Source of the DNA: a virus
Taxonomy: Duplodnaviria; Caudoviricetes
IMG/VR virus record: IMGVR_UViG_3300032268_000205
Coordinates: 1 to 29,573 of that record
Direction: 5' to 3' (one strand)
DNA: 29,573 bases
The notes beneath the pieces are model-generated. The model made no database searches. It was not told where the DNA came from and saw nothing but the letters and a program-made list of their open reading frames with translations. A program made the translations under genes and the position numbers. The stretch's first letter is position 1. The number at the start of each line of letters is the position of its first letter. Below, piece by piece: positions 9,310-28,089 of the stretch.

Positions 9310-9379
9310 ATAAATCGCATTTGTCACAAAAGTCATATATGATTTATTGTTGTAATTCAACAATTTACGGAGGCTTTTG

Positions 9380-10892: not shown

Positions 10893-10894
10893 AT

Positions 10895-11952: not shown

Positions 11953-12097
11953 CTTCGTTCACCTTTGTATAAACTGTTTCGGTTATTTGCAAAACATACT
12001 GTATGTCGTTTAAACTTAGTTGCCCCAGCAGCTGGAGAATCTTGACTACCGCAATGTCGTTATCTAAGGGTTGCGGTTTTACTATATGTTCAATCAT
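11927..12097 (-). CDS. 56-aa hypothetical protein (MIEHIVKPQP...)
   Basis: RBS GGAGG and ATGA overlap with the upstream gene. Confidence 0.65.
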   Translation of the reverse strand: MIEHIVKPQPLDNDIAVVKILQLLGQLSLNDIQYVLQITETVYTKVNEDDMESTVS

Positions 12098-12261: not shown

Positions 12262-12273
12262 TTGATTTCCTTA

Positions 12274-12552: not shown

Positions 12553-12561
12553 GTTTAAACG

Positions 12562-12828: not shown

Positions 12829-12924
12829 TTAGTCCTCGTAGTAAATGATAAATAAAACATAAAGAAAGAAAGACGTTACAACAAGCCCTATCAGGGCAAA
12901 AAAAGTTAGCAGAATTGTGATCAT
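12829..12924 (-). CDS. 31-aa single-TM peptide (MITILLTFF...)
   Basis: Fills the gap between neighbours exactly; ATGA overlap. Confidence 0.55.
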   Translation of the reverse strand: MITILLTFFALIGLVVTSFFLYVLFIIYYED

Positions 12925-13238
12925 TTGTTCACCAAAATAACGACTAACAACGCAAAGGCAAGCACCATTTTGTATGTAAAACTGAGCCAGTATTGCCTTT
13001 TAAGCATTTCTGGATCTCCAATAAGGTAAGACTGTAGCCTTAACATATCAGTATCTTCCTCCACATACTTGGGCGGTTGATAATACTTCCCTATTTGAAT
13101 ACCAGTAGATGTCATGTAGGGTGTGTAACTAGGACTAGACTTTAACAAAGTTTTTTTAGAAACTTTCTTTGAAACACTTTGGAACACATCTTTTAAAGCC
13201 TCTGCGTTTAAACGATCTTCAGTTGTAAATGTTGTCAT
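12921..13238 (-). CDS. Hypothetical protein with C-terminal TM helix
   Basis: RBS GGAGGAG before MTTFTTEDR; hydrophobic C-terminus. Confidence 0.7.
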   Translation of the reverse strand: MTTFTTEDRLNAEALKDVFQSVSKKVSKKTLLKSSPSYTPYMTSTGIQIGKYYQPPKYVEEDTDMLRLQSYLIGDPEMLKRQYWLSFTYKMVLAFALLVVILVNK

Positions 13239-13666
13239 CACTCCTCCAGTTGTTTGCCACATTTAAAAAGTACTTCTTTAGGTACTAAGAAAGCTTTCTT
13301 AGGAGATCTGTCACCAGTCCCAATAAAGTCAACGTACTGCATCTTTTGCTGGAAAATACAATTCACGATACTCATAGGCTTGATCAGCATAAATACGTGG
13401 TCATCATAGAATAGCCAGTAGTCCGCAGTCGTAGTGATCAGGGCAGAGGCTTTGCCATTCATCTCAATCTCAACAACAATGTTGCCTGTTTCGTTGCTCA
13501 TCGGGTCGTACTTCACCTCCACCGATTTATGCAACTCAGGTATCCATATGTCGTAGCCTTTAAATGCCTCAATCAAACTAGCTGAGGGATATTTTTTGCG
13601 TATCACTTCCAAGGCTTTTCTTTCTATAGCCTTGCCACGCTCAAGGTCTTGATGAAAAGTGTTCAT
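13238..13666 (-). CDS. PD-(D/E)XK restriction-endonuclease-fold protein
   Basis: E..YDIW..VEVKYD..TGNIVVE..ADYW. Confidence 0.65.
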   Translation of the reverse strand: MNTFHQDLERGKAIERKALEVIRKKYPSASLIEAFKGYDIWIPELHKSVEVKYDPMSNETGNIVVEIEMNGKASALITTTADYWLFYDDHVFMLIKPMSIVNCIFQQKMQYVDFIGTGDRSPKKAFLVPKEVLFKCGKQLEE

Positions 13667-13875
13667 TCCTTTTGCGCCTTTTCCTTGGTGTTATTCACAA
13701 TAAGATAAACTTTTTCCCCTTCAATCTTGCGACCAGTAACCCATTCTTCTTTTGGGTCTTCAATCATGTGTTCACGCAACGCAATGCGAATAGCTTCTTT
13801 CTCACACCTAGCTTCTACTTCATATAACAACGTATTAAGTTGAGTTTCGTATAAAAGAACTTCGTATTTGTTCAT
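13663..13875 (-). CDS. Hypothetical protein
   Basis: ORF track; ATGA overlaps. Confidence 0.7.
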   Translation of the reverse strand: MNKYEVLLYETQLNTLLYEVEARCEKEAIRIALREHMIEDPKEEWVTGRKIEGEKVYLIVNNTKEKAQKE

Positions 13876-14048
13876 TTTTTATATACCTGTTGTAATTTAA
13901 TTTCAAGCTCACCGTTTGCTATTTTTGTTAAATACATTCTTAAGGCAGAAGATACAGTCAAGCCATTTGCTTGTAATATTTCTTGAGCATCATTAAATAT
14001 TTTTTTATTAACTCGAACCCTGACCATTGCATCTAACAGATTCTTCAT
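13872..14048 (-). CDS. 58-aa RelB/DinJ-like ribbon-helix-helix protein
   Basis: MVRVRVNKKIFNDAQEILQANGLTVSSALRMYLTKIANGE resembles the RelB/DinJ N-terminal DNA-binding domain; ATGA overlaps on both sides. Confidence 0.7.
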   Translation of the reverse strand: MKNLLDAMVRVRVNKKIFNDAQEILQANGLTVSSALRMYLTKIANGELEIKLQQVYKK

Positions 14049-14191
14049 TTAGCCACCATCATATAAGCACCAAAGTTACCTATTACGCTTGAAAAATAGC
14101 AGACTGCCAATGGGGTATTTCCCTTAAGGAATAAGTCAACCGCAAGGCAGGCATAGATAATCCCAAGAACAATGATTAGCGGTATGCTCAT
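14045..14191 (-). CDS. 48-aa two-TM membrane protein (paralog B)
   Basis: MSIPLIIVLGIIYACLAVDLFLKGNTPLAVCYFSSVIGNFGAYMMVAK; 23/48 ungapped identity to 11231..11377. Confidence 0.75.
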   Translation of the reverse strand: MSIPLIIVLGIIYACLAVDLFLKGNTPLAVCYFSSVIGNFGAYMMVAK

Positions 14192-14340
14192 AATAAGTAG
14201 TACCCCGCCATAAACGCATTTGCAATCACCTTAAAGGTTAATCCCATTAGGAATAACCCAATAAAAAATCCAAAAATAAGTACAAACCAAAGGGCAACCG
14301 TGCAGGCAAAATCCCAAAGGGTTTCTAATAATGTTTTCAT
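14188..14340 (-). CDS. 50-aa membrane protein (MKTLLETLWD...)
   Basis: Hydrophobic; ATGA overlaps on both sides. Confidence 0.6.
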   Translation of the reverse strand: MKTLLETLWDFACTVALWFVLIFGFFIGLFLMGLTFKVIANAFMAGYYLL

Positions 14341-15266
14341 AGTAGCTCCAATGATGGTTGTTTTAGTCTTTCTTTTTGTAATGCTTCATACTCAGGGTTC
14401 AGCTCGCTGCCAAGGTACAGCCTGTTTAAACGCTGTGCTACGGCAGCCGTAGTTCCTGATCCCATAAAAGGATCTAGCACAATGTCTCCTACTTTGGTAC
14501 TTGCAAGAACGCAAGGCTCAATTAACTCAGGCGGGTATACGGCAAAATGAGCACCCTTAAATGGCTTGGTAGTAACAGTCCATACAGACCGCTTATTAGC
14601 CATCTCGTAGCTCTTTTCTAGTCCCGAATGGGGACTAAGCCCTGATCCCTCGTTGTGGTACTTGCCATCACTTCTGTCCCTAGTTCCCCAGTCCTCTTTA
14701 ACAGGCTCTTTAATAGCCTCGTTGTCAAAGTAATACTTGGAGTTCTTAGATAGCAGAAAGATATATTCATGGCTCTTGGTGCAACGATCCCGCACAGACT
14801 CAGGCATAGGATTAGGCTTGCTCCAAATGATGTCTTGACGTAGATACCACCCGTCCGCTTGCAAGGCAAAGGCGACCCGCCAAGGGATTCCTATAAGGTC
14901 TTTTTCCTTGAGTCCAGCCTGTTTATTCCCACGTCTAGCACACACCTGCGGTAGGTCTTGAAGATTGTTAGAAACAGTTTGCTTAACCAAAGCCTGACCC
15001 TTGCCACCCCTGTAGTTATAGTAACTATCGCCAAGGTTTAACCAGACCGTTCCATCCTCCGCCAGAATGTCTTTAACCCGTTTAAACACATCGACTATAG
15101 CCGCCACGTATTCATCGACTGTTTGCTCAAGACCAATCTGACCATCAACCCCGTAGTCTCGTAGCCCAAAATAGGGTGGAGAGGTGACACAAGTTTGCAC
15201 CGTGATGCCTTGCTTGTGCCATTCCTCCATGATGGCACGGCAGTCCCCGAACTCAATGCGGTTCAT
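14337..15266 (-). CDS. DNA amino-methyltransferase, beta class (m4C or m6A)
   Basis: Catalytic TSPPY precedes SAM-binding LDPFMGSGTT; IIWSKPNPMPES and HFAVYP also present. Confidence 0.92.
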   Translation of the reverse strand: MNRIEFGDCRAIMEEWHKQGITVQTCVTSPPYFGLRDYGVDGQIGLEQTVDEYVAAIVDVFKRVKDILAEDGTVWLNLGDSYYNYRGGKGQALVKQTVSNNLQDLPQVCARRGNKQAGLKEKDLIGIPWRVAFALQADGWYLRQDIIWSKPNPMPESVRDRCTKSHEYIFLLSKNSKYYFDNEAIKEPVKEDWGTRDRSDGKYHNEGSGLSPHSGLEKSYEMANKRSVWTVTTKPFKGAHFAVYPPELIEPCVLASTKVGDIVLDPFMGSGTTAAVAQRLNRLYLGSELNPEYEALQKERLKQPSLELL

Positions 15267-15592
15267 CTTTGATAACCTATTCTGTTGCCGTTGTTATCGT
15301 AGATGTTGCGAGTGCCCTGACTGTTTCGTACTTCATAGCCAATGCGGTTGCCTTCGTTGTTATAAATGCCGTTCTTGGAATCCAAGTTGTAAGGACTGTT
15401 CTCCCAGTTATATTGACTGTTCTTATAGTTGTATTGACTGTTGTCAAAGTTATAAGGACTGTTTTTATAATTGAGTGGGTTGTTCTCCCAACTGGTTTGA
15501 GCGCAGGCTTTAGTAGCAATCAAAGCCATAAAAGAAAGGATTGCCACAGAGATCAATAGCCCCGCAATTAAACCCATGATCCAATCTTTCAT
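15263..15592 (-). CDS. Exported or membrane-anchored protein with five 7-aa Asn/Tyr-rich repeats
   Basis: N-terminal hydrophobic segment ending ACA, then WENNPLN YKNSPYN FDNSQYN YKNSQYN WENSPYN, then 2x IY.N.GNRIGY. Confidence 0.75.
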   Translation of the reverse strand: MKDWIMGLIAGLLISVAILSFMALIATKACAQTSWENNPLNYKNSPYNFDNSQYNYKNSQYNWENSPYNLDSKNGIYNNEGNRIGYEVRNSQGTRNIYDNNGNRIGYQR

Positions 15593-15777
15593 TTCACGTT
15601 CCTTTTCTTTTTAATTGCAACAATTCCTTGAGGCTCTTCCTTGACCCTACGTGCCTCTAGCATTTCGTCTGCCATCTTGTATGCAGTTTTTGCCACGGAA
15701 TAATCTCTAAGACCGCTAGATAACATTCCATTCATTGCAAACATAGCAAAGCAATCCCGCAAGTCTTGATCATTCAT
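15589..15777 (-). CDS. Conserved small phage protein (LRDxFA..AY.MADEMLEAR type)
   Basis: Motif common in proteobacterial phages. Confidence 0.75.
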   Translation of the reverse strand: MNDQDLRDCFAMFAMNGMLSSGLRDYSVAKTAYKMADEMLEARRVKEEPQGIVAIKKKRNVK

Positions 15778-16099
15778 CTTTATGTTCCCTCAAGAACTTT
15801 TCGATGTCATCGCTAACGACTTTGGCAAACGTCTTGCCCGATGGAAACATCATGGTTGCACCCTCGCAGGAGTTGGTAATACGGATAGCCTCGTTTAAAC
15901 CCTGATTGAATCCCTTGTTGAACGGGTCATTTCCTCCAGCCATCCGCATCTTGAATGCCTCCCTTGCCAATTGACCTACGCTAATATCCGATTTTTCCGC
16001 ATACTTTGTGATACGTTCCTTTTCGGATTGCTCAAGGTAAATCGTTATGGAATTGCGCTCGTTAAAAAGGCTCTTCTTCGATCCATTGCTCATAATCAT
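15770..16099 (-). CDS. Ribbon-helix-helix (CopG-like) DNA-binding protein
   Basis: SITIYLEQSEKERITKYAEKSDISVGQLAREAF. Confidence 0.6.
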   Translation of the reverse strand: MIMSNGSKKSLFNERNSITIYLEQSEKERITKYAEKSDISVGQLAREAFKMRMAGGNDPFNKGFNQGLNEAIRITNSCEGATMMFPSGKTFAKVVSDDIEKFLREHKDE

Positions 16100-16472
16100 T
16101 TACCATTTCATCAAATTTTTGTTGGGCATCTCTGTTGCCATTCAGTTCGGTTCGTGAATTGATACCGCAGATTCTATGAATAGCATCTACTGCATCGTCT
16201 TCGCTATCGACCGTTAGCTCGTTTTCTTTTTTAAGCCACAACTGGAATTGGTGAGAGCGACATAGGATGCCCGCTTTCTTAACACGGTTGTCGTAGTGCT
16301 TGGCAGTCTCGTTGTCTTCGATACGTGCCATCGCCACACCATATCGTGCCCCAACAAAATCCCGCATTAACTCATCGGGGATCTCGTCAGGGTGGATATT
16401 AAGTGTCAGTACGAAACCAGTCTTGTCCTGTTTAAGGGCGATCTTGACTGCTTCAAACTGAAGTGCGTTCAT
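16062..16472 (-). CDS. Hypothetical conserved phage protein
   Basis: ORF track; lies in the operon next to the recombination genes. Confidence 0.75.
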   Translation of the reverse strand: MNALQFEAVKIALKQDKTGFVLTLNIHPDEIPDELMRDFVGARYGVAMARIEDNETAKHYDNRVKKAGILCRSHQFQLWLKKENELTVDSEDDAVDAIHRICGINSRTELNGNRDAQQKFDEMVNDYEQWIEEEPF

Positions 16473-16753
16473 TTTTGTCCTAGCATATGTTCAAGGTAAG
16501 AAATGACTGCTTTGTAACCAATAATTTGATGCTCAAGATTAAGAATCTTTATTTCTTGATCCTTAACTATTTCATCCTTAAGAATTCTTACTGGAATGGG
16601 TGGTATGTTTGGCATAGAGCGTAGACTTTCATCAACCTGTTTAAACGCTTTGCTCTTGCTGCCAACTTTTTTAGCAACCTTTCTAGCACGTTTATCTTTA
16701 GAACCCAAAGGTCTGCCACGTTTTTTAGGTAAATTAGAACTCAATATCATCAT
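16469..16753 (-). CDS. Basic protein with AT-hook-like motif
   Basis: KKRGRPLGSKDK; C-terminal coiled coil. Confidence 0.65.
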   Translation of the reverse strand: MMILSSNLPKKRGRPLGSKDKRARKVAKKVGSKSKAFKQVDESLRSMPNIPPIPVRILKDEIVKDQEIKILNLEHQIIGYKAVISYLEHMLGQK

Positions 16754-17018
16754 CCAACTCCTCTGCTTTAGTTTGTTGTGGTTGTGCTTGTTGCTCTCTT
16801 GGCTTTTGCGCCTTGATTTGTAAATAGGTTAAGCCTGACTTAGCAGTCTGTTTCCATCCCGCCAGTTCAACGCTAATCGTTCCGTTGACTACATCGAATG
16901 CGCTAAGATCTAGCACAATCTTGCCACGATAGTCAGGGGCTTTAGGATTGGTCTTTGTTTTGTTAGCAAAGAACGATCCTGTGTTTGGTTTCTCTTCGTA
17001 TGGTTTATCGTAAGCCAT
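16734..17018 (-). CDS. SSB-like single-stranded DNA-binding protein
   Basis: NTGSFF.N..K..PKAPDYRG..LAGWK; acidic DDDIEF tail; adjacent to ERF. Confidence 0.7.
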   Translation of the reverse strand: MAYDKPYEEKPNTGSFFANKTKTNPKAPDYRGKIVLDLSAFDVVNGTISVELAGWKQTAKSGLTYLQIKAQKPREQQAQPQQTKAEELDDDIEF

Positions 17019-17021
17019 GCA

Positions 17022-17633
17022 TCACTCCTTAAATTTAGATTTATATTGTGCAAATGCTTCCTGCACTTGTTTAAACAACTCAGGCTTCTGCGACTTCATT
17101 CTGTCGATGCCCGCCTGATTTTTCTTCCAAAAACCTGACAACTCTTTTAGGTCTTCGCAAGTACTACCAAAGGTAATCAACACCTCCGCAAGTGGTGCAA
17201 GATCGCCATCGGATTCTTTTGGCACTTCTTTTACTACTGGTTTTACTTCTACTGGTGCAGATCCTGTAACCGCATCAAGCGCATCATGCTCAACAATAGC
17301 CAATGCGGTTACATACAGATAACGTCTTTGGTATGTTTCAACTGCGCCGATGTTTTGAACTTCGTGGCAACCCTTTAACTGGGCAGAACCCATAGGTGAT
17401 GTAAACGTCACGCTACTGCCATCATCTGTGTCGTATATAACCATCGTAGCCAAGTCTTCTGTAAAAGAGATAACGTCACACAAGCCATGCTTGTTAAAAA
17501 GCATTTGAATGGATGGCAAAAAGTCACCCAATTCAAAATACTTGTAACCCGCAAACTTATTGTGACCCGACTTTGATAACGACATTGCTTGCAACTCGCT
17601 ACGTACTGCTACTAACTTTTTATAAACTTTCAT
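17022..17633 (-). CDS. ERF-family single-strand annealing protein
   Basis: KSGHNKFAGYKYFELGDF..QNIGAVETYQRRYLY..I.E.D.LD. Confidence 0.88.
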   Translation of the reverse strand: MKVYKKLVAVRSELQAMSLSKSGHNKFAGYKYFELGDFLPSIQMLFNKHGLCDVISFTEDLATMVIYDTDDGSSVTFTSPMGSAQLKGCHEVQNIGAVETYQRRYLYVTALAIVEHDALDAVTGSAPVEVKPVVKEVPKESDGDLAPLAEVLITFGSTCEDLKELSGFWKKNQAGIDRMKSQKPELFKQVQEAFAQYKSKFKE

Positions 17634-17805
17634 TTTCCTCACTCCTTATTCTTTGTATTAATCTATATTGAACACACTTCAACTGACTCATGGCATCACT
17701 TAAAATGTCCAGTCTGTCTTCATTACTTAACTCAAGAAACTCCTCAGAAAAATTAACTGCCACAGATTTTGAGTCTTCATTAGCAAAAACTGAATACGCT
17801 CTCAT
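17620..17805 (-). CDS. Hypothetical protein
   Basis: ORF track; RBS GGAGG; overlaps neighbours. Confidence 0.65.
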   Translation of the reverse strand: MRAYSVFANEDSKSVAVNFSEEFLELSNEDRLDILSDAMSQLKCVQYRLIQRIRSEENESL

Positions 17806-18689
17806 TCTGTTTCCTCCAACAAGCTTGCTTGATACTGACTACACCATTGCGATACTCCGCAATAATTTCCTGTACAACGTACTGCCTCGCCTTTTCGGAT
17901 CTCTATGAACCCTTTATCTTTCTCAGGCATTTCTTTGAGAAGTTCTTTTGCCTCTTCGTGTGTATCAAACACACGTACCGCAGTCTTGCGACCATCTTTC
18001 TTTACTGCATACTTTGTTTCACGTACCCAACGGTCTTCCTCGGTACACAATGGAAGTTCTTCATTCCAATCTGCGCTTACCTTGGAGTCACGATGCATCT
18101 CGATGCGCTCTTTGATGTAATGCTCGGTGCGGTCAAACGTCCACATCGGAATGTCGATCACTTGGATTTGAGATTGCGGGTAGTTAGGCTTGACCTCTGC
18201 CTCTCTGCGAGACCAATCACGTACAAAGGCGCAGATCTTCAAAGCCTTGACAGGGGTCTTCTTAACCCGCTCGACTAAGTACTTATAGATGTTTTGTTGT
18301 TGTTCCCACTCAGGCTTGTCATGCATCAATGCCCATGCGGATGTGAACTTATAGTCTGTGATTGTGATGCCGTCTGCATCATTCTTTTGCAGATCAATAG
18401 CACCTGAGAGAACGATGTCGTTGATGTCAACAGATAGACGTTCCTCATTGGTGTGACCGTCTACCTCAGAACGCTCGGCTACAACGTGCAGAGCAGTCCC
18501 TAGGAGCATCCAAAGCATATCGGATACATCTTGCTCCATCTCATCGTAATGCTTGCGCCTGAGCCTCTGTATACGTGGCGGGGAGATGATTTCTGTGACT
18601 GAGTAGTCAGATGCGCCCTTAGTGTAGTAGTCTCTACTTGCGAGAGCCACCAACGTTTCGGGAACATTGTGGTTGTTCGTGATCTTCAT
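17802..18689 (-). CDS. PD-(D/E)XK exonuclease (RecB/Cas4-like fold)
   Basis: LGTALH..E..LSGAID..TDYK..Q.NIY; C-terminal Cys cluster; next to ERF; RBS GGAGGCTT. Confidence 0.85.
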   Translation of the reverse strand: MKITNNHNVPETLVALASRDYYTKGASDYSVTEIISPPRIQRLRRKHYDEMEQDVSDMLWMLLGTALHVVAERSEVDGHTNEERLSVDINDIVLSGAIDLQKNDADGITITDYKFTSAWALMHDKPEWEQQQNIYKYLVERVKKTPVKALKICAFVRDWSRREAEVKPNYPQSQIQVIDIPMWTFDRTEHYIKERIEMHRDSKVSADWNEELPLCTEEDRWVRETKYAVKKDGRKTAVRVFDTHEEAKELLKEMPEKDKGFIEIRKGEAVRCTGNYCGVSQWCSQYQASLLEETE

Positions 18690-18742
18690 TAAGCCTCCAA
18701 ATTGTTAATACGAACATAGATGTTAATACAAACTTTTTAAGA

Positions 18743-19102
18743 ATGCAAATGTTATTACTAAAAATATTAGGTGAACCCGCCAGTAAAGCAAACTCACGTA
18801 GGCAGGTCTTCATTCACGGCAAGTCAATGTTTATCAAGTCCGCAAAGGCATTGTCGTATAGCAAGTCGTTTAAACAACAGGCAGAAAGCCAGAAGCAAAT
18901 GTTGTTTTCTGGAGACGTTGCGGTAACGATTCGTATATGGTACGCATCACGCAGACCCGATCTAGATGAATCGTTAATCCTTGACCTACTGCAAGACGTG
19001 GCTTATGCCAACGACCGTCAGGTAAAAGAAAAGCATATCTACTGGATGGGTGTGGATAAAGAGAATCCAAGGTGCGAGATAGAAGTATCCGAGAAGGTAT
19101 AA
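18743..19102 (+). CDS. rusA: RusA-like Holliday junction resolvase
   Basis: GEPASKANSR..RRPDLD..ILDLLQ..YANDRQV..NPRCEI. Confidence 0.85.
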   Translation: MQMLLLKILGEPASKANSRRQVFIHGKSMFIKSAKALSYSKSFKQQAESQKQMLFSGDVAVTIRIWYASRRPDLDESLILDLLQDVAYANDRQVKEKHIYWMGVDKENPRCEIEVSEKV

Positions 19103-19177
19103 AAAAAGCCACCGCTAGGGTGGCTTTCCGACCTACTGGTCTACCAAGTTTCGGAGGCTTAGATCTTCTGCAAGGTT
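19100..19177 (-). ncRNA. Candidate small RNA 1 (~75 nt) with anti-RBS seed UAAGCCUCCGA
   Basis: Minus-strand TATAAT at 19184-19189; no credible short ORF; terminator hairpin and U-run at 19101-19127. Confidence 0.5.
19101..19127. terminator. Intrinsic terminator, probably bidirectional; the longer U-tract is on the minus strand
   Basis: AAAGCCACC-GCTAG-GGTGGCTTT with an A7 run on the left. Confidence 0.8.
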
Positions 19178-19178
19178 G

Positions 19179-19207
19179 TTGTAATTATACACAACTTCAA
19201 ATACAAT
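19179..19207 (+). promoter_or_regulatory. Sigma70-like promoter overlapping a divergent -10 box
   Basis: TTGTAA (19179-19184), 17-nt spacer, TACAAT (19202-19207); opposite-strand TATAAT at 19184-19189. Confidence 0.65.
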
Positions 19208-19212
19208 GAAAC

Positions 19213-19274
19213 CGTTTCTTGCAATCTCCTCACGATGATGGTTTAGAGAGTACTTCGGTACTCTCTTTTTTTTT
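19213..19274 (+). ncRNA. Candidate small RNA 2 (~60 nt) with anti-SD seed AUCUCCU
   Basis: Bounded by the promoter above and the terminator AGAGAGTAC-TTCG-GTACTCTCT-T8 (19245-19274); no RBS or ORF inside. Confidence 0.55.
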
Positions 19275-19395
19275 GTTAGAAGCAAAGACACGTTTAAACA
19301 ACATCTATGCATGGAAGCCGGGCTTACGCCGCCTGGCTGTGACCACACGTTTAAACTTTGTTCGTGAGTAAATACCCTAGGTTCTTAAAATTTAC

Positions 19396-19425
19396 TTGCA
19401 ACCCGCATACAAATTTCAGTAAGAT
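19396..19425 (+). promoter_or_regulatory. Possible promoter for the HNH/primase unit
   Basis: TTGCAA, 18-nt spacer, TAAGAT. Confidence 0.4.
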
Positions 19426-19666
19426 GGAATCCTGTTTCGCTTGACGATGAAAAACGGTAGGGGCGAGACGTGTATTGCTGATACTACGGTTAGTGCATTA
19501 GAGATCAGAAACGGATGGCGAAGAAAGAGTCCGTTGCACGCAAAGTCTTTCGGGTCAATCGATACCATGTGGGCAGAGATTGTGAAGGCAACCTAGTTTA
19601 GGCTAGGTCTGCCCTCCTCCAAGAGGGCAGGTATAGAAACAGTAATAATATATATAGGAACAGGTT

Positions 19667-19948
19667 ATGCCTTTCGTTAACAAACCAAGAAACTACAAAA
19701 AAGAAGAGAAGTACTTAGACTCACCTGAGCAAGTTAAGAATCGTGTTGCAAGAAACAAAGCAAGACGAGAGGCAATCAAGGCGGGCAAAGTAAAAAAGGG
19801 TGATGGCAAAGAAATAGACCACGTCATCCCGCTATCCAAAGGTGGTACTAACTCACCGAAAAATCTACGAGTAAAGTCTGCATCAGAGAATAGATCTTTC
19901 TCAAGGAATAGTGACCATAGTGTTAAAATAAATAAACCCAAGAAGTAA
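19667..19948 (+). CDS. Small HNH endonuclease
   Basis: EIDHVIPLSKGG..NLRV.S.SENRS; basic N-terminus. Confidence 0.85.
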   Translation: MPFVNKPRNYKKEEKYLDSPEQVKNRVARNKARREAIKAGKVKKGDGKEIDHVIPLSKGGTNSPKNLRVKSASENRSFSRNSDHSVKINKPKK

Positions 19949-19962
19949 ATCGTAGGAGGCTT

Positions 19963-21654
19963 ATGAGTGCAGTAGAACAACTAGTATCATCTTTGCACGT
20001 CCCTGATAGCATAAGGGTTGCGTGTCCCGAATGCTCACATGAGCGAAAAAAATATAATCAAAAAGATTTTGACATCACCGCCAAGGCAGATGGATGGAAG
20101 TACCATTGTTTCCATTGCCATATCGGTGGTTTCGTACCATTTTCTAAAACAACAACCTATCGTAGAGCGGAGAGCAACGTGATCCCAATGAGAACATTAG
20201 ACACAACAAAATTACAAGCACAACATTATGATTTTTTAAAGTCGAGGGGAATCTCCGCACAAACTGCGGAGAATATGCAATTATTCCCCGCAGAAAAATA
20301 CTTTCAGCGTTTAGAAAAGAAGACCGATGCAATCGGCTTTCCTTATTTCCGTAATGGGCAGTTTGTTTCTGCAAAGTATCGCTCGATTGAATCAAAAGAT
20401 TTCACGCAAGATGCGGGCGGGGCGCAAGATTTTTTTGGGATAGACAAAATAGATCTGTCATTGCCTGTGATCATTGTCGAGGGCGAGATCGATGCGTTGA
20501 CCCTACTTGAGTGCGGTCTGAAAAATGTGCTTTCAGTACCAAGCGGTGCGCCAATGAAAGTATCTGACGGAAAAGTAGATGCATCGGAGGATAAGAAGTT
20601 TGCATTCGTTTGGAATGCGGTGGACGTTTTGAATAAAGTGCCATACGTTACCATCGCAACCGATACTGATACTGCGGGGCAGGCATTGGCTGAGGAACTG
20701 GCTAGGCGCATCGGCAAGGACAAGTGTCGCATTGCCCACTTTGCCTACAAGGATCTGAATGAGGCTTTCCTAGACAAGGGGAAAGACGTGGTTCTTGAGA
20801 TCATCGAAAAGGCAGAACCCTATCCAGTAGCAGGATTGTCTTCCGCCAGCAAGTTTGCAGATCGTTTAAACGACTTGTGGGGTAAGGGTACGGGCAAAGG
20901 TCTATCAACTGGCTACTCAAATGTCGATGAAATTTATACCGTAGCACAGGGTCAGCTTACCATTGTTACTGGCTATCCGTCATGCGGAAAATCCAACTTT
21001 GTGGATCAGCTAATGATCAACTTAGCCAAAGCCCACGACTGGAAGTTTGGTCTGTGTTCTTTCGAGAACCAACCAGAGATTCACATTTCCCGCCTGATGG
21101 AGATCTACAAAGAGAAACGATTCTTTGACGGCACTAACCGAATGACGGACGCTGATCGTGACGATGCGTTTAAATTCGTTGAAGAGCATTTCCTGTTCTT
21201 AGACTCCGAGGGTGCTGAACCCGCAACAATCGATTCGATCCTAGAGCGGGCGAAGATAGCTGTAGTCCGCATGGGTATTCGTGGCTTGGTGATTGATCCG
21301 TACAACTACATTGAGAACAAGGGTGGTCAAGCGGAGCATGAGTTCATCTCAGGGATGTTGACACGCATACAGGCATTCGCTAAGGCTTATGGGGTGCATA
21401 TTTGGTTTGTTGCCCATCCAAGCAAGATCACTCGATCAGGCATGGATCTGCCAAGACCTGACGGCATGGCGATCAGCGGATCGATGGCATGGTGGGCTAA
21501 GGCTGACTGCGGTATCACTATCCATCGTACAAAGGATCATGGGGTTGAGTTAGCCGTTTGGAAGTGTCGCTATCGTTGGATAGGAACTCAGGGAGAAACT
21601 ACTTTGGGGTACAACAAGGTCACAGGCACGTACTTTGAGCAAGAGGCATTCTAA
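19963..21654 (+). CDS. T7 gp4-like DNA primase-helicase
   Basis: Zn finger CPEC..CFHC; TOPRIM VEGEIDAL..SVPSGA..DTDTAG..KDLN; SF4 helicase TGYPSCGKS, VIDPY, VAHP, ISGS. Confidence 0.93.
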   Translation: MSAVEQLVSSLHVPDSIRVACPECSHERKKYNQKDFDITAKADGWKYHCFHCHIGGFVPFSKTTTYRRAESNVIPMRTLDTTKLQAQHYDFLKSRGISAQTAENMQLFPAEKYFQRLEKKTDAIGFPYFRNGQFVSAKYRSIESKDFTQDAGGAQDFFGIDKIDLSLPVIIVEGEIDALTLLECGLKNVLSVPSGAPMKVSDGKVDASEDKKFAFVWNAVDVLNKVPYVTIATDTDTAGQALAEELARRIGKDKCRIAHFAYKDLNEAFLDKGKDVVLEIIEKAEPYPVAGLSSASKFADRLNDLWGKGTGKGLSTGYSNVDEIYTVAQGQLTIVTGYPSCGKSNFVDQLMINLAKAHDWKFGLCSFENQPEIHISRLMEIYKEKRFFDGTNRMTDADRDDAFKFVEEHFLFLDSEGAEPATIDSILERAKIAVVRMGIRGLVIDPYNYIENKGGQAEHEFISGMLTRIQAFAKAYGVHIWFVAHPSKITRSGMDLPRPDGMAISGSMAWWAKADCGITIHRTKDHGVELAVWKCRYRWIGTQGETTLGYNKVTGTYFEQEAF

Positions 21655-21829
21655 GAACCTGAATGTAGCGTTTAAACAATAGGCATTCAGCATAGTACCC
21701 ATAAGGTGAAACAATTTCAAAATAAATTATTGAAATTTTATTTTGTAATCAAAGCCTTGCAAGCGTTTTTGTGTTTGAAAAGTTCTGCACCGATTAAGAG
21801 CGTTTAAACGGCTTGCACAATTTTAAGAC

Positions 21830-21867
21830 AAAAAAAAAGCCCCCCGATGACCGAAGTCAAAGGGGGG
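21830..21867 (-). terminator. Intrinsic terminator of the leftward early operon
   Basis: Minus strand CCCCCC-TT-TGAC-TTCG-GTCA-TC-GGGGGG-C-T9. Confidence 0.8.
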
Positions 21868-21875
21868 ATCTAGCA

Positions 21876-22097
21876 TCATTTCAAGGTTAGATTGGCTATG
21901 TGTTCCCATACGGTTTCAACATAGCCTTGGATGTCATCGTCAGGGGATTGATCCCTGATGTCTATCAATGTATCAAAAGCTTTATTAAAGTTACGCAAAG
22001 CCTCCTTATCACTTATTGCATTTGTCTCAACTAAATGCTGAATTGACATTACATCTAAAACAACTCGGTTTAGTCTTACTTGATTTTGTGTGTGCAT
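21876..22097 (-). CDS. Hypothetical protein
   Basis: ORF track; RBS GAGGA. Confidence 0.7.
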   Translation of the reverse strand: MHTQNQVRLNRVVLDVMSIQHLVETNAISDKEALRNFNKAFDTLIDIRDQSPDDDIQGYVETVWEHIANLTLK

Positions 22098-22105
22098 AAG
22101 TCCTC

Positions 22106-22381
22106 TTAATAATTTTCAATTGAACGATCAGTCATGCTCGCCACCTCAACATCGAAGATAGAGCGCATGATGGATAAAACGGTTGCATCGTCACCTTTTG
22201 CAAGTGCTTGCATCAACTCACTTTGCAACGGATAAACCTTGTCGTGCAAGTCGCACTCCGCAGGGTTTACACCGAACTGACGAATCTCTTTAAGAACCAT
22301 TTCGTTCTCTTCCTCCCAACGGATTTCGCAGTCTTCCGTATCTTCCGCACAACTTTGTAACCAACGATCAGGATTAATCAT
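22106..22381 (-). CDS. Hypothetical acidic protein
   Basis: ORF track; RBS AGGAG. Confidence 0.7.
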   Translation of the reverse strand: MINPDRWLQSCAEDTEDCEIRWEEENEMVLKEIRQFGVNPAECDLHDKVYPLQSELMQALAKGDDATVLSIMRSIFDVEVASMTDRSIENY

Positions 22382-22535
22382 CGTTCAACTCCTTTGCTAA
22401 GTTAAGCAATTGACTGGGGGTGTAACCATCCAGTACCAACTGCACAAGATTGTCAACGGTAAAGTCAACGAAGTAGTCATACACCCTGACTGCATTGTCC
22501 TCACCTACCAAGTCTTTTAATTGTTCATAAGTCAT
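22374..22535 (-). CDS. 53-aa hypothetical protein (MTYEQLKDLV...)
   Basis: RBS GGAGGTG; ATGA overlap. Confidence 0.7.
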   Translation of the reverse strand: MTYEQLKDLVGEDNAVRVYDYFVDFTVDNLVQLVLDGYTPSQLLNLAKELNDD

Positions 22536-22696
22536 GACTTCACCTCCTCTGTAAGTTTATTAATTAACTGATCAACTTTTTTCCAAGCCTTGTCAGCCTC
22601 CTTATCTAACTTGCCACTCATATGCTCGTTGACGGTGAGTTCGGTGTAGTAAGCAATCTGTGACCGTAACTCAGACGCTATCCATGCTCTATCCAT
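22532..22696 (-). CDS. 54-aa hypothetical protein (MDRAWIASEL...)
   Basis: Start moved to the ATG at 22696, which follows AAGGAG. Confidence 0.7.
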   Translation of the reverse strand: MDRAWIASELRSQIAYYTELTVNEHMSGKLDKEADKAWKKVDQLINKLTEEVKS

Positions 22697-22817
22697 TCTT
22701 ACGCTCCTTAATTTCACGTTCAAGTATTTGTTGAAACAACTTCCAACGTGATGACTTTTTATAGCCCGCACGTTGAGCCTCACGATCTACAACTTTTACA
22801 ACTGGTGTTGGTCTCAT
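22689..22817 (-). CDS. 42-aa basic peptide (MRPTPVVKVV...)
   Basis: Fills the operon gap and overlaps the next gene. Confidence 0.55.
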   Translation of the reverse strand: MRPTPVVKVVDREAQRAGYKKSSRWKLFQQILEREIKERKNG

Positions 22818-22820
22818 TGT

Positions 22821-22910
22821 TTAAACAACCCCACGAATAAAGTTGGCAACGAATACAACCAACACAACATACAAAGCAACATCCCACAAGCGATCAATAA
22901 AGTGTTTCAT
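22821..22910 (-). CDS. 29-aa single-TM peptide (MKHFIDRLWD...)
   Basis: RBS AGGGG; its stop lies inside a GTTTAAAC. Confidence 0.5.
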   Translation of the reverse strand: MKHFIDRLWDVALYVVLVVFVANFIRGVV

Positions 22911-22918
22911 TTTTTCCC

Positions 22919-23137
22919 CTAATGAATGGTTTCATTGCTTGGATCGTTGGACTCATATACCTGAGCCAAAACCCTGTTGACGTACTGCGAAAGCGAATGC
23001 GGTGGAAGACCGCCCATGCAACCCGCATTAGCGAGTAGCAAGGCGAGTACCGACACTACAATGTCCACGTCCTTGCCGTTAATTTGATTGCCCATCAACT
23101 CCATCAGGCTTTCAAACTGAGAACTGTCATCTTCCAT
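22919..23137 (-). CDS. Hypothetical protein (MEDDSSQF...TIH)
   Basis: C-terminal part of track ORF 22919..23254; G-rich RBS before the ATG at 23137. Confidence 0.6.
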   Translation of the reverse strand: MEDDSSQFESLMELMGNQINGKDVDIVVSVLALLLANAGCMGGLPPHSLSQYVNRVLAQVYESNDPSNETIH

Positions 23138-23169
23138 ACTCCCCCCATCGGGGGGCATAGCCCCCCACA

Positions 23170-23976
23170 TTAGCGTAACTCCTTGAGCAGTTTGCCAAAG
23201 GATGCATCGGCTAGATTGTTGACGTTCTCTACGTTTTGAGCAATCTTGAAACATTGCTCAACCTCTGTCTTGCCGACACCGATTGCTATTATTTTAATGC
23301 CTAGCTTGTCGGCAATCCCTTGCAGGTGAACCATGTGCGACTTGGTGTATGAGTCGGCATCAGTCAGGAAGAACAGGATCTTGCGTTGCTCATCCCGCTT
23401 GCTCAACTCCTCCAAGGTTATGGATAGGGCAGAGTAGTCGGGAGTGGAATGCTTTGCCCACCCGCTGATTGATCCAAGCTTGGCAGATGCCTTGGTCAAT
23501 GACTCATTCCAAGTCTTGAATGGAATGAACTCGGTGTACTCTACCGATGCCACGATGGTATCGGTGGTAGCCCCAGTAGCACTCTGACTTGCATGACCAT
23601 ACCCGCCATGAAAGCCAACCACGTTGAATGATGCATTTGCTTTGTCAAGCATCTTGCTCAACTGGATTGCAACCGATTGGGCGGTTTGAATTCTGCGCCC
23701 ATTGCCCATCGATCCTGAGCAGTCAATCAAGATGGTGACCGCAGAGGCTTGCGCCTCAACGTGATGCCGTTTAGAGAAGATCGCAGTACTGCCTGTTGCG
23801 TAGCGTGTAAACGCTTTGCGATCTAACCGCCCTGTCTCCTCATGGGTATTCCAACCGACAAGGTCAAGGCTACGCAAGATGCGTTGGATGGTAGCCTTGG
23901 TAGCACCGAGACCGCTAGGCTCGGAGTTGAACTCGACAGAGTAAGACATCTGCGCTTGTGTTTTATTGATTAGCAT
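23170..23976 (-). CDS. vWA-domain protein (CobT-like C-terminal half)
   Basis: GRLD..; MIDAS ILIDCSGSM; TPD; FFLTDA; own RBS TAAGGAG. Confidence 0.85.
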   Translation of the reverse strand: MLINKTQAQMSYSVEFNSEPSGLGATKATIQRILRSLDLVGWNTHEETGRLDRKAFTRYATGSTAIFSKRHHVEAQASAVTILIDCSGSMGNGRRIQTAQSVAIQLSKMLDKANASFNVVGFHGGYGHASQSATGATTDTIVASVEYTEFIPFKTWNESLTKASAKLGSISGWAKHSTPDYSALSITLEELSKRDEQRKILFFLTDADSYTKSHMVHLQGIADKLGIKIIAIGVGKTEVEQCFKIAQNVENVNNLADASFGKLLKELR

Positions 23977-23984
23977 ACGACTCC

Positions 23985-25040
23985 TTATCGCCACTCGAAT
24001 GTGGCATACGTTGGTTTAGCTGAACTAGGACGGCTATCTAAGCGTGGGTTAAGTTCGGTGCGCTGATCCTTGAGTTCACCCTCGATGAACTCGGATGGCT
24101 CAACATTGCGCCCGCCTGCAAACTCCTTACCGCCACCGTTTTTCTTGCCCTCCTCAGACGATTTATCTCCATCGGTAGGCTCACCCTTATCGGCAGGCTG
24201 ATCGCCTCCCTCAGACCCCTTCTCGCCATCCTGATCGCCCTTGTCACCGTCAGTAGGCTTGTCGGTAGGATCACCATCACCGCCCTTGTCACCGTCCTCA
24301 GTCGGTGGCTTGTCACTAGGCTTATCGCCATGCTCGACAGGCTGATCACCGTCACGCTCTTGGTCACCACCCTCATCCTCGCCATCGGTAGGCTCAGGCT
24401 CAAAGTCCTTGAGACGTTTGAACAATTCGATTGCGATCTCTGCAATGCGGTAGGTGTTGGGTGCTACCTGCGCCTCGGCTAAAGCCCAACGTAGATCAGC
24501 AGACCAAGGGGCATCATCAACAATGCTTGGCGCATCGATGTGGTAACCGTTTAAACGTCTTCCCTCAACAGCGAGTAAAAACGGTACGTTCTTGAGATCG
24601 TCCGCATCAACGTAGCCATGCTTTTTAAGAATCGAATTGAGCAACTCCTCAAACAATGCCTTGGCATTCGGGGCATAGCCTGACTCGATGACCTTGCGCT
24701 CGATGCGAGGATCTTCAAGACCATTAATAAGATTGCCAACGAATTGACCATGCTCATTGCGAGCGGTGTCCCAAGGCTTGTTCTCGGTGAACCATGCATG
24801 ACCGAGTTCATGGATCGCATAGCCGATCAGGTTATTAAAGGTAGAGCGTTTCATCTCCGCACCCTCATCGATGGAGGGGAAGACGATCTTGGCATCCACC
24901 GTATTACCGACACGCTTGAAGATGATGCCTGCGGTAGATCCAGTCCACAGTACTTGCAACTGAGAGAACTCATTGCCTGTCGAACCGAACACACGCTCGA
25001 CAGTAGACTCGACACCACGTTTAGCATTGATTGCTAACAT
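23985..25040 (-). CDS. CobT-like N-terminal metallopeptidase with acidic low-complexity tail
   Basis: HELGH..NGLEDPRIE; D/G/K/P-rich stretch; RBS GGAGGCTT. Confidence 0.8.
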   Translation of the reverse strand: MLAINAKRGVESTVERVFGSTGNEFSQLQVLWTGSTAGIIFKRVGNTVDAKIVFPSIDEGAEMKRSTFNNLIGYAIHELGHAWFTENKPWDTARNEHGQFVGNLINGLEDPRIERKVIESGYAPNAKALFEELLNSILKKHGYVDADDLKNVPFLLAVEGRRLNGYHIDAPSIVDDAPWSADLRWALAEAQVAPNTYRIAEIAIELFKRLKDFEPEPTDGEDEGGDQERDGDQPVEHGDKPSDKPPTEDGDKGGDGDPTDKPTDGDKGDQDGEKGSEGGDQPADKGEPTDGDKSSEEGKKNGGGKEFAGGRNVEPSEFIEGELKDQRTELNPRLDSRPSSAKPTYATFEWR

Positions 25041-25049
25041 AAAGCCTCC

Positions 25050-26522
25050 TTACTTAGTTAAGAATGATTTGAGATTGTTGACATCGATGGTGGCAGAAAA
25101 TACACCACGCAACTCAGCCTCGCAATCAGCGGGGAACTTATTAACGATTGCATTCTCAAAGGCGATGCCGACTGGCACACCCTTGGTAATCGCACGTGCC
25201 CAAGCAAACAACTGACGTAGGCTTGGTGGTTGAGTCAGCACACCTGCTTTAGCTTTCTCACGTGCAACCGTAGCGAACTTGATCAGCACCTCCGAGGCAT
25301 CGACTGGTAAGCCAGTACGCTTAGACACAAGCGAGACCTCATCAGCAAAGGGCAGGTACTCAAAGCGCAACGTGTAACCAAAGCGATCAATGAATGCGGT
25401 GTTCTGATCACGCACACCTGCGAAGTTGCCTGACTGGTCACCGAATCCGTTACTGTTATCGGCACAGAAAAACGCAACGTGCGATGCGACTGCGATGCGT
25501 TCGCCTGTCTCAGCGATAACGATAGAGCGGTGTGGGCTACGCTCACAGAGCGAGTGCAGTACTGCAATTGACTGCGCTCTTGCAAAGCCAACCTCATCGA
25601 GTATTATCAGCGCACCTGTGTGTTGGATTGCTTGAGTGATGACACCCGCTTTCCACACCACGTTGCCATCCTTGATGGTGTTGCCACCGATGAACTCGGC
25701 ACGCTCCATCGCCTCATCGAAGTTGACTCGGAAGAGTCTACGTCCGAGGCGGGATGCAACCTGAGTCACGAACTCGGTCTTACCAGTACCACGCTCACCT
25801 GCAAGCCACACGTTGTCAGGCAGGGGATCATCGAGCGCAACCAAGGCTTGATGCAGGTGCTTAGGATCGAACACGTAGTCATCGACACGTGCGGGAGCGG
25901 ATGGATCGTTCCACACCTCGATGTCCATGTTGCTAAAGTCGATGGTCTCGCCACCGTACTCATAGCTGAGTGCGCCATCGAACACGTCCTTGACCTTGGC
26001 ACGCTTGACGTTCGGTACTGACTGCGCCACCTGAGCGATAACCTCCTTGGTGGCGGTCTTTTTGAATGAGGCAAAAAGCTTGGACACCTCAGCACGAATG
26101 GTGTCTTCAATGACCTTGGGATCAGGCTTTTCAACCGCATCGATCTTGACGTTTAAACGGTCTGCCAAGATCTTGAAGTCCTTGGCAATCTGTGTTGACT
26201 GTTGCAACGCAGAGTCAAGGGATCTGTCAGCAGTCGTGCGTAGTGCATCGACTTGTGCCAAGGCTTTGTCAACCTTGACTTGCGCATCGGTCACCGACTT
26301 GCGGATGTCATCAGGCACACCCTGTAAAACAGATGATGGCTTGGTGTTGCGCACCTCATCGATGGTGACGTAGCCACCGTTGATCAGGTCTGCCACGAAC
26401 TGATTGTCATCAACAGGGTTACCAGTAAAGGCGCAGTTGGGCGCAAGCTTTGCGCCATGTTGGTCAAGCACCACCTGTACTACGGTGCGTGGGAGCAGGG
26501 AAATGATTTTTGGAATATTCAA
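25050..26522 (-). CDS. CobS/MoxR-like AAA+ ATPase with N-terminal coiled coil
   Basis: Walker A GERGTGKT, Walker B IILDE, ADN..G, AFIDRF, SLRQL; TTG start after GGAGGCTT. Confidence 0.9.
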   Translation of the reverse strand: MNIPKIISLLPRTVVQVVLDQHGAKLAPNCAFTGNPVDDNQFVADLINGGYVTIDEVRNTKPSSVLQGVPDDIRKSVTDAQVKVDKALAQVDALRTTADRSLDSALQQSTQIAKDFKILADRLNVKIDAVEKPDPKVIEDTIRAEVSKLFASFKKTATKEVIAQVAQSVPNVKRAKVKDVFDGALSYEYGGETIDFSNMDIEVWNDPSAPARVDDYVFDPKHLHQALVALDDPLPDNVWLAGERGTGKTEFVTQVASRLGRRLFRVNFDEAMERAEFIGGNTIKDGNVVWKAGVITQAIQHTGALIILDEVGFARAQSIAVLHSLCERSPHRSIVIAETGERIAVASHVAFFCADNSNGFGDQSGNFAGVRDQNTAFIDRFGYTLRFEYLPFADEVSLVSKRTGLPVDASEVLIKFATVAREKAKAGVLTQPPSLRQLFAWARAITKGVPVGIAFENAIVNKFPADCEAELRGVFSATIDVNNLKSFLTK

Positions 26523-26542
26523 GGTAAGCCTCCGAGAAAAAA

Positions 26543-27145: not shown

Positions 27146-27246
27146 AGAACCTCCTTGTGTTTTTGTTTGCGGGAATACTTGCGGGCGGTGTGGCTACCTG
27201 CACCACAACGCTTTGCGTGCTTTGCTACGAAGTTTCTGATAGGCAT
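27142..27246 (-). CDS. 34-aa basic peptide MPIRNFVAKHAKRCGAGSHTARKYSRKQKHKEVL
   Basis: RBS GGAGGG; ATGA overlap; N.VAK..AG.H..KY.RK.KH pattern seen in small phage proteins. Confidence 0.7.
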   Translation of the reverse strand: MPIRNFVAKHAKRCGAGSHTARKYSRKQKHKEVL

Positions 27247-27254
27247 AAGCCCTC

Positions 27255-27545
27255 CTAATATCCATGTTTATCTGAGTCGAATGAATCGTCACCGTCATAC
27301 CATTGGGTCTGATTCAGTCCCTGTTTGAACACCTGATTTGCCTCTGATTTATGGTGATCAGAACCATATTTCAGGATGAATTTCAAATACTTTTTGCGGA
27401 GCGGGAGCGCAACCTTGTACTCACCCTCTGCGTGTAGATCCAACTCATGTAGGCAAACATAAGCTAGATCGTCAATTGTTTTATGGGAAAAAAAGTCATA
27501 ACTGGTGTTGATTGGTAATGCTTTTAATGCTTTATCGAAGTCCAT
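27255..27545 (-). CDS. Hypothetical early protein (MDFDKALK...)
   Basis: Start moved to the ATG at 27545, which follows AGGAGA. Confidence 0.7.
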   Translation of the reverse strand: MDFDKALKALPINTSYDFFSHKTIDDLAYVCLHELDLHAEGEYKVALPLRKKYLKFILKYGSDHHKSEANQVFKQGLNQTQWYDGDDSFDSDKHGY

Positions 27546-27722: not shown

Positions 27723-27926
27723 CTATTTTTTGTCAACTAATTGTTGGGTCAGTACTACCAACCCCTCGATAAGCCTGTTGGCTCGGACACTTTCGGGAGT
27801 GGTCATCCCATTTTTACGGACATGAAACCAACCATGTGGCTTAACGTCAATGATGCAAGGCTTGCGTTTAACCGCCCGCCAAGCATTTTCATAAGCCTCG
27901 GCTAAAGCCTCATTGTTTAACTGCAT
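27723..27926 (-). CDS. Hypothetical early protein
   Basis: ORF track; RBS GGAGGG. Confidence 0.7.
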   Translation of the reverse strand: MQLNNEALAEAYENAWRAVKRKPCIIDVKPHGWFHVRKNGMTTPESVRANRLIEGLVVLTQQLVDKK

Positions 27927-27937
27927 AAGCCCTCCGA

Positions 27938-28078: not shown

Positions 28079-28089
28079 AAAGCCTCCAT

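Follow-up and report, generated by a model that had tools for sequence, protein, structure and literature searches.

The locus and its tagged ribosome-binding sites

The DNA analysed here (the window, 29,573 nt) is an entire 29.6-kb virus record and represents about half of one phage genome; near-complete relatives measure 56–64 kb and contain a terminase, a portal, a tail fibre and a virion protein of 3000 aa. The window begins with the end of the virion genes, continues with a leftward recombination operon (exonuclease first), rusA and a non-coding island, and ends with an HNH gene and a primase-helicase gene, a leftward early operon (small genes, an SprT-like gene, a CobS-like gene and a split CobT-like pair) and terS. 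Comparison at the DNA level against 50,697 phage records gave no useful match to a cultured relative, and the best match of the primase was at about 31%. We infer a betaproteobacterial host solely from the name of an Rfam motif and the titles of two MAGs. A third related contig is located in an archaeal bin, so the MAG bins of such contigs can be wrong; an hfq gene is found in two betaproteobacterial MAGs that include related contigs and may represent hosts. The sequence GGCC is absent from the window and CCGG occurs once, against about 72 expected for each, which suggests avoidance of restriction.

The original prediction had described the region as devoid of a recognisable CI-type repressor. 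None is encoded in the window; however, the genome does encode small DNA-binding proteins of the RHH (15770–16099) and RelB-like (13872–14048) types. A LexA-type DNA-binding domain, without a peptidase, is located before terL. A tyrosine integrase is present in 2 of 23 relatives and in one of the eight near-complete ones, and both integrase-bearing relatives carry the unit described below. None of the five near-complete genomes tested contains an S24 peptidase, HTH_3, a resolvase or ParA.

Downstream of rusA, the minus strand carries what is predicted to be a sigma-70 small-RNA gene (19177–19101) with its own promoter and terminator (Table 1). The perfect TATAAT, the poor −35 box, the U7 terminator and the seed complement all lie where they had originally been placed. 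The 5′ end of the RNA, near 19177, was set at 7 nt below the −10 box. The terminator hairpin may also end the converging rusA transcript.

Table 1. Positions of the predicted sRNA, its neighbours and the tagged ribosome-binding sites (RBSs) in the window.
Feature	Position	Strand	Remarks
RusA-like resolvase	18743..19102	+	Converges on sRNA terminator; marks conserved place of unit
Predicted ~77-nt sRNA	19101..19177	−	Variable 5′ leader, seed, variable spacer, hairpin P1, intrinsic terminator
−10 box TATAAT of sRNA promoter	19184..19189	−	
Weak −35 box GTTTCA	19207..19212	−	3/6 matches, 17-nt spacer
Seed UAAGCCUCCGA	19151..19161	−	Complementary to extended RBS
Inner hairpin P1 (GACC-AGUA-GGUC)	19130..19141	−	Stem and loop differ across relatives, pairing kept
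Intrinsic terminator with U7	19101..19127	−	Hairpin and U-tail
Second, divergent promoter–terminator unit	19179..19275	+	~60 nt, contains CUCCUC; promoter overlaps sRNA promoter
Rfam Betaproteobacteria-1 RNA (RF02932)	19433..19555	+	Same non-coding island as sRNA; covered by one RNA contig
Metallophosphoesterase tagged RBS	9369..9376	+	Gene 9380–10375, late-gene strand
PD-(D/E)XK exonuclease tagged RBS	18691..18698	−	Gene 17802–18689; heads recombination operon
Primase-helicase tagged RBS	19955..19962	+	Gene 19963–21654; most faithful target across relatives
CobT-like tagged RBS	25042..25049	−	Gene 23985–25040, 351 aa, N-terminal half of split pair
CobS-like AAA+ ATPase tagged RBS (11-nt match)	26525..26535	−	Gene 25050–26522; GGAGGCTT copy at 26526
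Bulged variant GGAGGGCTTA	27246..27255	−	Before 34-aa ORF ending at SprT-like gene start
Bulged variant GGAGGGCTTA	27926..27935	−	Before 67-aa early gene (27723–27926)
First early gene tagged RBS	28080..28087	−	Gene 27938–28078, 46 aa

The unit matched no Rfam family, either in the window (at E ≤ 1) or in 15 loci (at the gathering score), and a tRNA scan gave no match on it. The seed of the window is predicted to be only 45% unpaired, compared with a family mean of 68%, and the stretch folds better on the plus strand (z = −3.07) than on the minus strand (z = −1.88), which counts against a minus-strand RNA. In one RNA run (containing 7% of the words; contigs only), the only cover within 9600–29573 is a single 154-nt contig at 19425–19567, which falls on the Betaproteobacteria-1 RNA and not on the sRNA unit; the run speaks neither for nor against the sRNA.

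The sequence GGAGGCTT occurs in eight copies in the window, where 0.85 ± 0.98 are expected (100 shuffles, largest 4). Six copies are RBSs, one lies in coding sequence (21998–22005), and one, at 19153 inside the minus-strand unit, is not followed by a plus-strand start codon, as had been noted. The original prediction named seven of these copies, all of which are present, and left out the coding one. The six RBSs that it listed do all precede start codons, and so do the two GGAGGGCTTA variants; its description of the targets as early and replication genes fits less well for the phosphoesterase, which is not clearly early because it is on the late-gene strand, behind a 2842-aa virion protein.

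The proposed target set also emerges from a ranking of 54 start regions by duplex energy with an 18-nt seed probe. Seven of the eight predicted targets give the seven best duplexes of the 54 (−20.2 to −14.8 kcal/mol, against a median of −7.45 for the start regions), namely all the exact sites, six in number, together with the bulged one at 27926; the second bulged site (27246) ranks ninth, with one canonical strong Shine-Dalgarno (SD) site ahead of it. At the top seven sites the sRNA duplex is 4–11 kcal/mol stronger than the duplex with an anti-SD motif, whereas at the canonical SD site it is weaker than the duplex with that motif. When a 28-nt probe was used, free duplex folding gave too much noise to rank the targets and was set aside.

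Several other elements lie in or near the non-coding island. The divergent plus-strand unit had been missed in the original prediction. The overlap of the two promoters is found in the clade of the window, and relatives commonly have a plus-strand terminator here, including some without the sRNA unit; many carry CUCC or GCAGUUG. Searches revealed neither a clear target set for the second RNA nor clean pairing between it and the sRNA. A sister clade (L069, L072, L073, L075–L079, L084, L091, L096, L099, L395–L473) has a different minus-strand unit directly after rusA, in which a terminator is followed by the complement of GGAGAG-like motifs and of CAACTGC; this unit resembles the second RNA family turned round, and a search for its targets found none. 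The Betaproteobacteria-1 RNA, described in the supplements of PMC5737381, is here a phage element, located upstream of HNH/primase in 45 of 61 loci with the unit and in 3 of 43 without it.

A further repeat, GTTTAAAC, is present in 32 copies in the window (0.67 expected), often in terminator loops, and in 11–25 copies per locus in several relatives, with others lacking it (L073, L083, L104); a literature search on it gave nothing relevant. The same 11-mer opens palindromes at 9347–9363, upstream of the phosphoesterase gene, and at 19176–19196, across both overlapping sRNA promoters, and it is possible that the palindrome is an operator for a phage regulator. Finally, the leader of the first early gene (28088–28415, minus strand) is about 300 nt long and has several strong hairpins after a sigma-70-like promoter. 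The corresponding leaders of relatives are long but dissimilar, and a GCCUCC motif in the leader of the window was rejected as unconserved.

Conservation of the unit and covariation of seed and tag

Related loci were gathered by a RusA search (147 loci). The terminator–hairpin–seed unit lies downstream of rusA in 45 of the first 50, the remainder being one truncated locus, two close relatives without the unit and two distant ones; overall it is present in 66 of 148 sequences, 55 of them distinct. Statistics were taken over 45 unit copies less than 90% identical to each other. In these, seed positions 1–7 and 9 are 91–100% conserved, compared with mostly 30–60% for the flanks. A minus-strand sigma-70 promoter with at least 9 of 12 matches is found in 38 of the 45 (shuffles: mean 2.6, maximum 8), and the end of the −10 box is 24–31 nt from the seed in 41; no copy has a plus-strand promoter aimed at the seed. 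A U-tail (at least 6 of 8) is present on the minus strand in 43 copies and on the plus strand in none. The −35 box is TTGACA in 25 of the copies, and the weak −35 of the window is peculiar to its own small clade.

Two-sided changes occur in 11 of 12 stem pairs, with 92% of cells paired and none of 500 shuffles doing as well, a test that kinship can inflate; linkers containing P1 fold at −5.85 kcal/mol, compared with −3.15 when shuffled. Calling the strand from G-U pairs in the terminator stems did not favour the minus strand (11 minus, 19 plus). A model trained on 42 unit copies finds one copy in the window and one in each of eight long relatives, mostly training sequences, and has no full-length match in three long relatives without the unit. 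A weak match in a Pandoraea genome was rejected, the terminator and hairpin being present but the seed missing. No copy was found in a clear prophage, and the sole MAG match is a 9-kb contig. Some basal relatives have C-rich P1 loops, and in six loci (L009, L051, L055, L071, L097 and L105) the P1 loop is enlarged to a stretch rich in C and U, which might act as a further anti-SD site. The unit is a real and conserved phage sRNA candidate of which the literature searched gave no description.

The distribution of the tag follows that of the unit. Where the unit is present, 190 of 385 RBSs of the GGAGG type are followed by CT; where it is missing, 13 of 153 are (loci to L115, not dereplicated). 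Starts bearing the genome's own 7-mer, counted by eye, number about 5, 5, 1, 6, 9–10, 4, 4 and 6 in G001–G007 and G009, respectively, G003 having a single full 7-mer site. The tagged starts in the eight long relatives lie in the early/replication arm, and terL, portal, capsid-region and tail genes are essentially untagged, apart from one capsid-region gene in G002 with a different variant. A relative without the unit (G008), whose RusA is 85% identical, has no tagged start in 54 kb.

GGAGGCT is missing from related phages that lack the unit and, in phages that have it, from the late genes. It is also 15–30 times rarer per base in five betaproteobacterial genomes, where GGAGGCT-ATG sites number 34–54 each, or 5–12 per Mb, compared with 5 in the 29.6 kb of the window. 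The tag is therefore phage-private and regulon-specific, and not the generic host RBS consensus that the original prediction had named as its possible undoing. Individual targets turn over: the tag is missing at the primase in L009 and at the exonuclease in L022, L057 and L071. In one complete genome (G004, loci L158–L161), a primosomal protein and a DnaB-like helicase replace the fused primase-helicase, and the sRNA and the remaining tagged genes are retained despite the replacement.

Conservation of the seed and its covariation with the RBS extension had been set as a test in the original prediction, and both are found in the related phages. Opposite the seed of the GGGGGCTT clade stand GGGGCTT at primase and CobS and the bulged GGAGGGCTT at the exonuclease. 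The seeds GGAGGCTCA, GGAGGCTAA, GGAGGCCAA (L047) and AGAGGCTCA (L061) each recur at their own primase RBS, as does GGAGGCTCT in L097 with a 13-nt match; in several relatives the complementarity reaches across the start codon. Exact matches between seeds and RBSs of the same phage were compared with those between phages in dereplicated sets with 20000 permutations. The own match exceeds the other at the primase (10.1 versus 7.3 nt, n = 35), CobS (9.7 versus 7.4 nt, n = 23), the exonuclease (7.9 versus 7.2 nt, n = 44) and the SprT-like gene (6.6 versus 5.4 nt), and these differences were never reached in the permutations. An SSB control showed no effect (3.12 versus 3.12). An apparent effect at the Erf RBS (3.42 versus 3.15, p 0.005) was discounted, the matches being too short to matter and the difference probably due to kinship.

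On a primase tree of 65 rows, the primase RBS is tagged in 53 of 54 rows with the unit, the exception being L009 (which was dropped from the position counts), and in none of the 11 without it. At position 8, all 53 phages show agreement between the seed and the primase-helicase RBS (T in 34, C in 10, A in 9), with six changes in each on the tree; at position 3 the two agree in 52 of 53, and the exception is a U-G wobble. Every pair agrees in an independent-pairs test, but the sign test is not significant because only 2–3 independent pairs sit on well-supported branches. A hold-out set of 77 further loci was then scanned, and the 55 with a rusA region or a model match were counted. All 8 loci with the unit have a tagged primase RBS that matches at position 8, although 3 of the 8 closely resemble earlier loci or one another; of the 47 loci without it, none is tagged. 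Seed and tag still match in one locus (L451) where the unit has the opposite orientation to the usual one, as action in trans predicts. At non-matching sites, RBS position 8 has T 16, A 7 and G 3 for C-seeds and G 9, T 8 and C 5 for A-seeds; this wobble bias is suggestive only, GGAGGTT being confounded by 16S pairing. As a whole, the intermolecular covariation of seed and tag is unusually clean.

Predicted function and its alternatives

A seed followed by a hairpin, a terminator and a U-tail is the layout of Hfq-type sRNAs, and pairing of an sRNA across the SD and spacer is an established mechanism for stopping ribosome loading. Given the anatomy of the unit, its conservation on the minus strand, its complementarity to the tagged sites, their covariation and joint loss, and the early-arm position of the tagged genes, we consider it very probable that the sRNA represses translation of the phage's own genes by pairing. 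The host polymerase would transcribe the sRNA from the start of infection; its seed, which host Hfq may assist, would pair over 8–12 bp with the SD and spacer of tagged mRNAs (over the AUG in some relatives), occluding the ribosome and blocking translation of the tagged early and replication genes. Owing to the CT(T/C/A)A extension, the sRNA would prevail over 16S rRNA on phage messages and leave most RBSs of the host and of late genes unaffected. Because tag and seed change and vanish together, one RNA likely represses all tagged genes together.

A stable sRNA that rises with genome copy number would overtake short-lived early mRNAs and could in this way form a timer or feedback. It seems to us reasonably likely, though far from certain, that the sRNA is a cumulative brake that turns down the early/replication programme as infection proceeds. 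This is the simplest role for a mostly lytic phage with a promoter of host type, and would make the sRNA an RNA counterpart of T4 RegB/RegA; a timer or replication brake is favoured over prophage immunity because integrase, CI and ParA are mostly absent. The trans-acting, RBS-occluding sRNA of the original prediction is thus supported at the level of sequence; of the two predicted roles that it offered, a developmental switch is better supported than immunity. A more ambitious version is that, in a widespread phage lineage, an RNA-only master switch for the early regulon replaces CI, that single-base seed changes give immunity or exclusion groups, and that the divergent second RNA could make a toggle; this we regard as possible but doubtful.

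The same sRNA and the same pairing might serve immunity instead, by silencing a carrier state or prophage or by blocking later related phages, with the seed variants as immunity types, in the manner of c4 in P1 and P7. A consensus promoter of host type could be active in a quiet cell, the targets extend to the first early genes and the primase-helicase, a CI-type repressor is absent, two unit-bearing relatives have a tyrosine integrase, and seed variants arose repeatedly. However, integrase, resolvase and ParA are lacking in most near-complete relatives, and the search for copies found no clear prophage, its one MAG match being the short contig mentioned above. Moreover, around an invariant core the variants differ by 1–2 bases, and foreign tags are still matched over about 7 nt, which is little diversity for immunity groups, and each lytic infection would have to overcome a repressor made from the first minute. 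We consider an immunity role unlikely, and the cumulative brake remains our preferred reading of the sRNA.

A different question is whether the reader of the tag is an RNA at all. GGAGGCT could be a DNA operator (stoperator-like) or the site of a phage translational repressor or nuclease, the copy at 19153 being an extra site or a plus-strand decoy. The sites of one protein would covary too, an RHH protein and an AT-hook-like one are encoded by the phage, the window's unit folds well on its plus strand, and T4 RegA and RegB work on translation-initiation regions (PMC3014915, excerpts). Nevertheless, the sole start-less intergenic copy is antisense within its own promoter–terminator unit, none of the 45 distinct copies has a plus-strand promoter directed at it, and both flanks stay paired in bulged and wobble variants. 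In addition, a search for a protein that tracks the tag found none: RHH proteins turn up in tagged and untagged phages alike, and the AT-hook family occurs in the untagged L010 and is undetected in 16 tagged loci. A protein reader is accordingly very unlikely.

The real targets might instead lie in the host, either mRNAs shut off by an anti-SD RNA or an RNA-binding protein such as Hfq, with the fit to phage genes being secondary. The seed core is anti-SD, each betaproteobacterial genome has its few dozen GGAGGCT-ATG sites, and C-rich P1 loops are added in basal relatives; but this leaves unexplained why the primase and CobS RBSs track seed changes and drop the tag when the unit is lost, and we rate it as most improbable. 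Finally, a generic strong SD next to an ordinary terminator, matched by chance or as the relic of a lost gene start, is hardly credible and already contradicted by the RBS statistics, the covariation and the hold-out loci: a start codon does lie 4–8 nt past the plus-strand site in 18 of the 45 copies, but the frames run for 2–64 codons without conservation across copies, the window has none, and the tag is missing from relatives without the unit and from late genes and far sparser in the five bacterial genomes than in the window.

Comparison with known systems

To our knowledge, most known antisense RNAs of phages have a single gene or operon under their control, and early messages are known to be shut off as a group by proteins such as T4 RegA and RegB. 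Here, a whole regulon is apparently defined by a co-evolving RBS tag that is read by one small RNA. The mechanism is testable in E. coli without phage culture, because four natural seed variants with matching tags amount to compensatory mutants. The arrangement also provides a rule for finding hidden RNA regulators in phage genomes, namely a shared extended RBS together with one start-less antisense copy in a promoter–terminator unit, and it suggests compact, partly orthogonal translational repressors.

The unit has sequence features of a trans-encoded sRNA: its own promoter and intrinsic terminator, no conserved ORF, and a short conserved seed complementary to regions of translation initiation in unlinked mRNAs. 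A literature search, covering few subscription papers, found no description of this family; within that coverage, the class of mechanism is known and its use as a tag-reading regulon switch was not found in print.

The sRNA resembles c4 of phage P1 in logic but is not a member of that family. c4 controls a single antirepressor operon, whereas 4–10 targets in at least four transcription units are predicted here, in phages where lysogeny genes are mostly missing. As described in the available portions of PMC5320573, c4 of P1/P7 is a ~77-nt trans-acting phage RNA that partly occludes RBSs of the phage's own mRNA; RNase P releases it from a precursor, it contains three stem-loops and two separate recognition loops, and its function is in lysogeny. 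Common to both systems, as far as those portions go, are trans pairing that covers a phage RBS and variation in step of RNA and target (here by sequence only). Unlike c4, the predicted sRNA has its own promoter and terminator and one linear seed that is the complement of the RBS; in place of three stem-loops with loops a′ and b′ there is one short hairpin plus the terminator, with the seed 5′ of both, and the Rfam C4 covariance models gave no match on the unit (thresholds: E ≤ 1 for the window and the gathering score for 15 loci). A long c4-like precursor is unlikely because the sRNA's own promoter lies so close to the seed. The temperate repressor/antirepressor context of c4 is likewise absent, as judged from the five near-complete genomes and the rarity of integrase noted above.

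The Cuckoo RNAs of Alphaproteobacteria are cellular and have 2–4 hairpins, each with CCUCCUCCC in its loop (PMC4615179, excerpts). They share with the predicted sRNA a C-rich anti-SD-like motif, and some basal relatives have C-rich P1 loops; in contrast, the sRNA has a single linear seed matched to a private extension, lacks the 2–4 hairpins with CCUCCUCCC loops, and has no Rfam match. VpdS, PreS (PMC12197685) and SviR (bioRxiv 10.1101/2022.04.08.487710) are likewise multi-target sRNAs of phages or satellites: they are short, act in trans and have several mRNAs as targets, which according to excerpts of these papers are host genes, another phage or mixed sets; in the same excerpts, none is described as reading one co-evolved RBS tag over its own early regulon. 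The T4 endoribonuclease RegB reads an extended GGAG motif, and RegA is a repressor (PMC3014915, excerpts). As in that system, so far as the excerpts describe it, early messages of a lytic phage would be shut off as a group through their translation-initiation regions, but RegB and RegA are proteins, while the present tag is predicted to be read by an RNA, the specificity of which can be seen in the genome.

In kind, the tag resembles the start-associated sequences (SAS) of Cluster K mycobacteriophages. 
These SAS are 13 bp long and often joined to inverted repeats (ESAS); in the available parts of PMC3203893 and PMC12699233, the authors leave open whether the partner is RNA or protein and report one reverse start-less copy in four genomes. 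Like SAS, as those parts describe them, the present tag is a phage-private extended RBS that goes beyond 16S pairing and stands before many non-structural genes, to which it is almost wholly confined in the eight long relatives. It differs in that sequence and hosts are unrelated, the tag being an 8–9-mer and not the 13-bp consensus. Among the matches listed for 10 Cluster K records, reverse SAS have two mismatches and a frequency near that of a backwards control (0–3 versus 0–2). Four Cluster K right arms with 74 SAS sites have no start-less perfect antisense copy, and no conserved perfect antisense copy was found in the Cluster K records examined. A reverse SAS in Anaya (59870–59882; L329:33871–33883) lies in the gp96–gp97 gap, just after a strong 16-bp hairpin, with two mismatches, and has no conserved counterpart in four other Cluster K-like records. 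We suggest, by analogy, that the same logic of a shared extended RBS read by one antisense RNA may explain the extended-RBS repeats of other phages, including the SAS of Cluster K.
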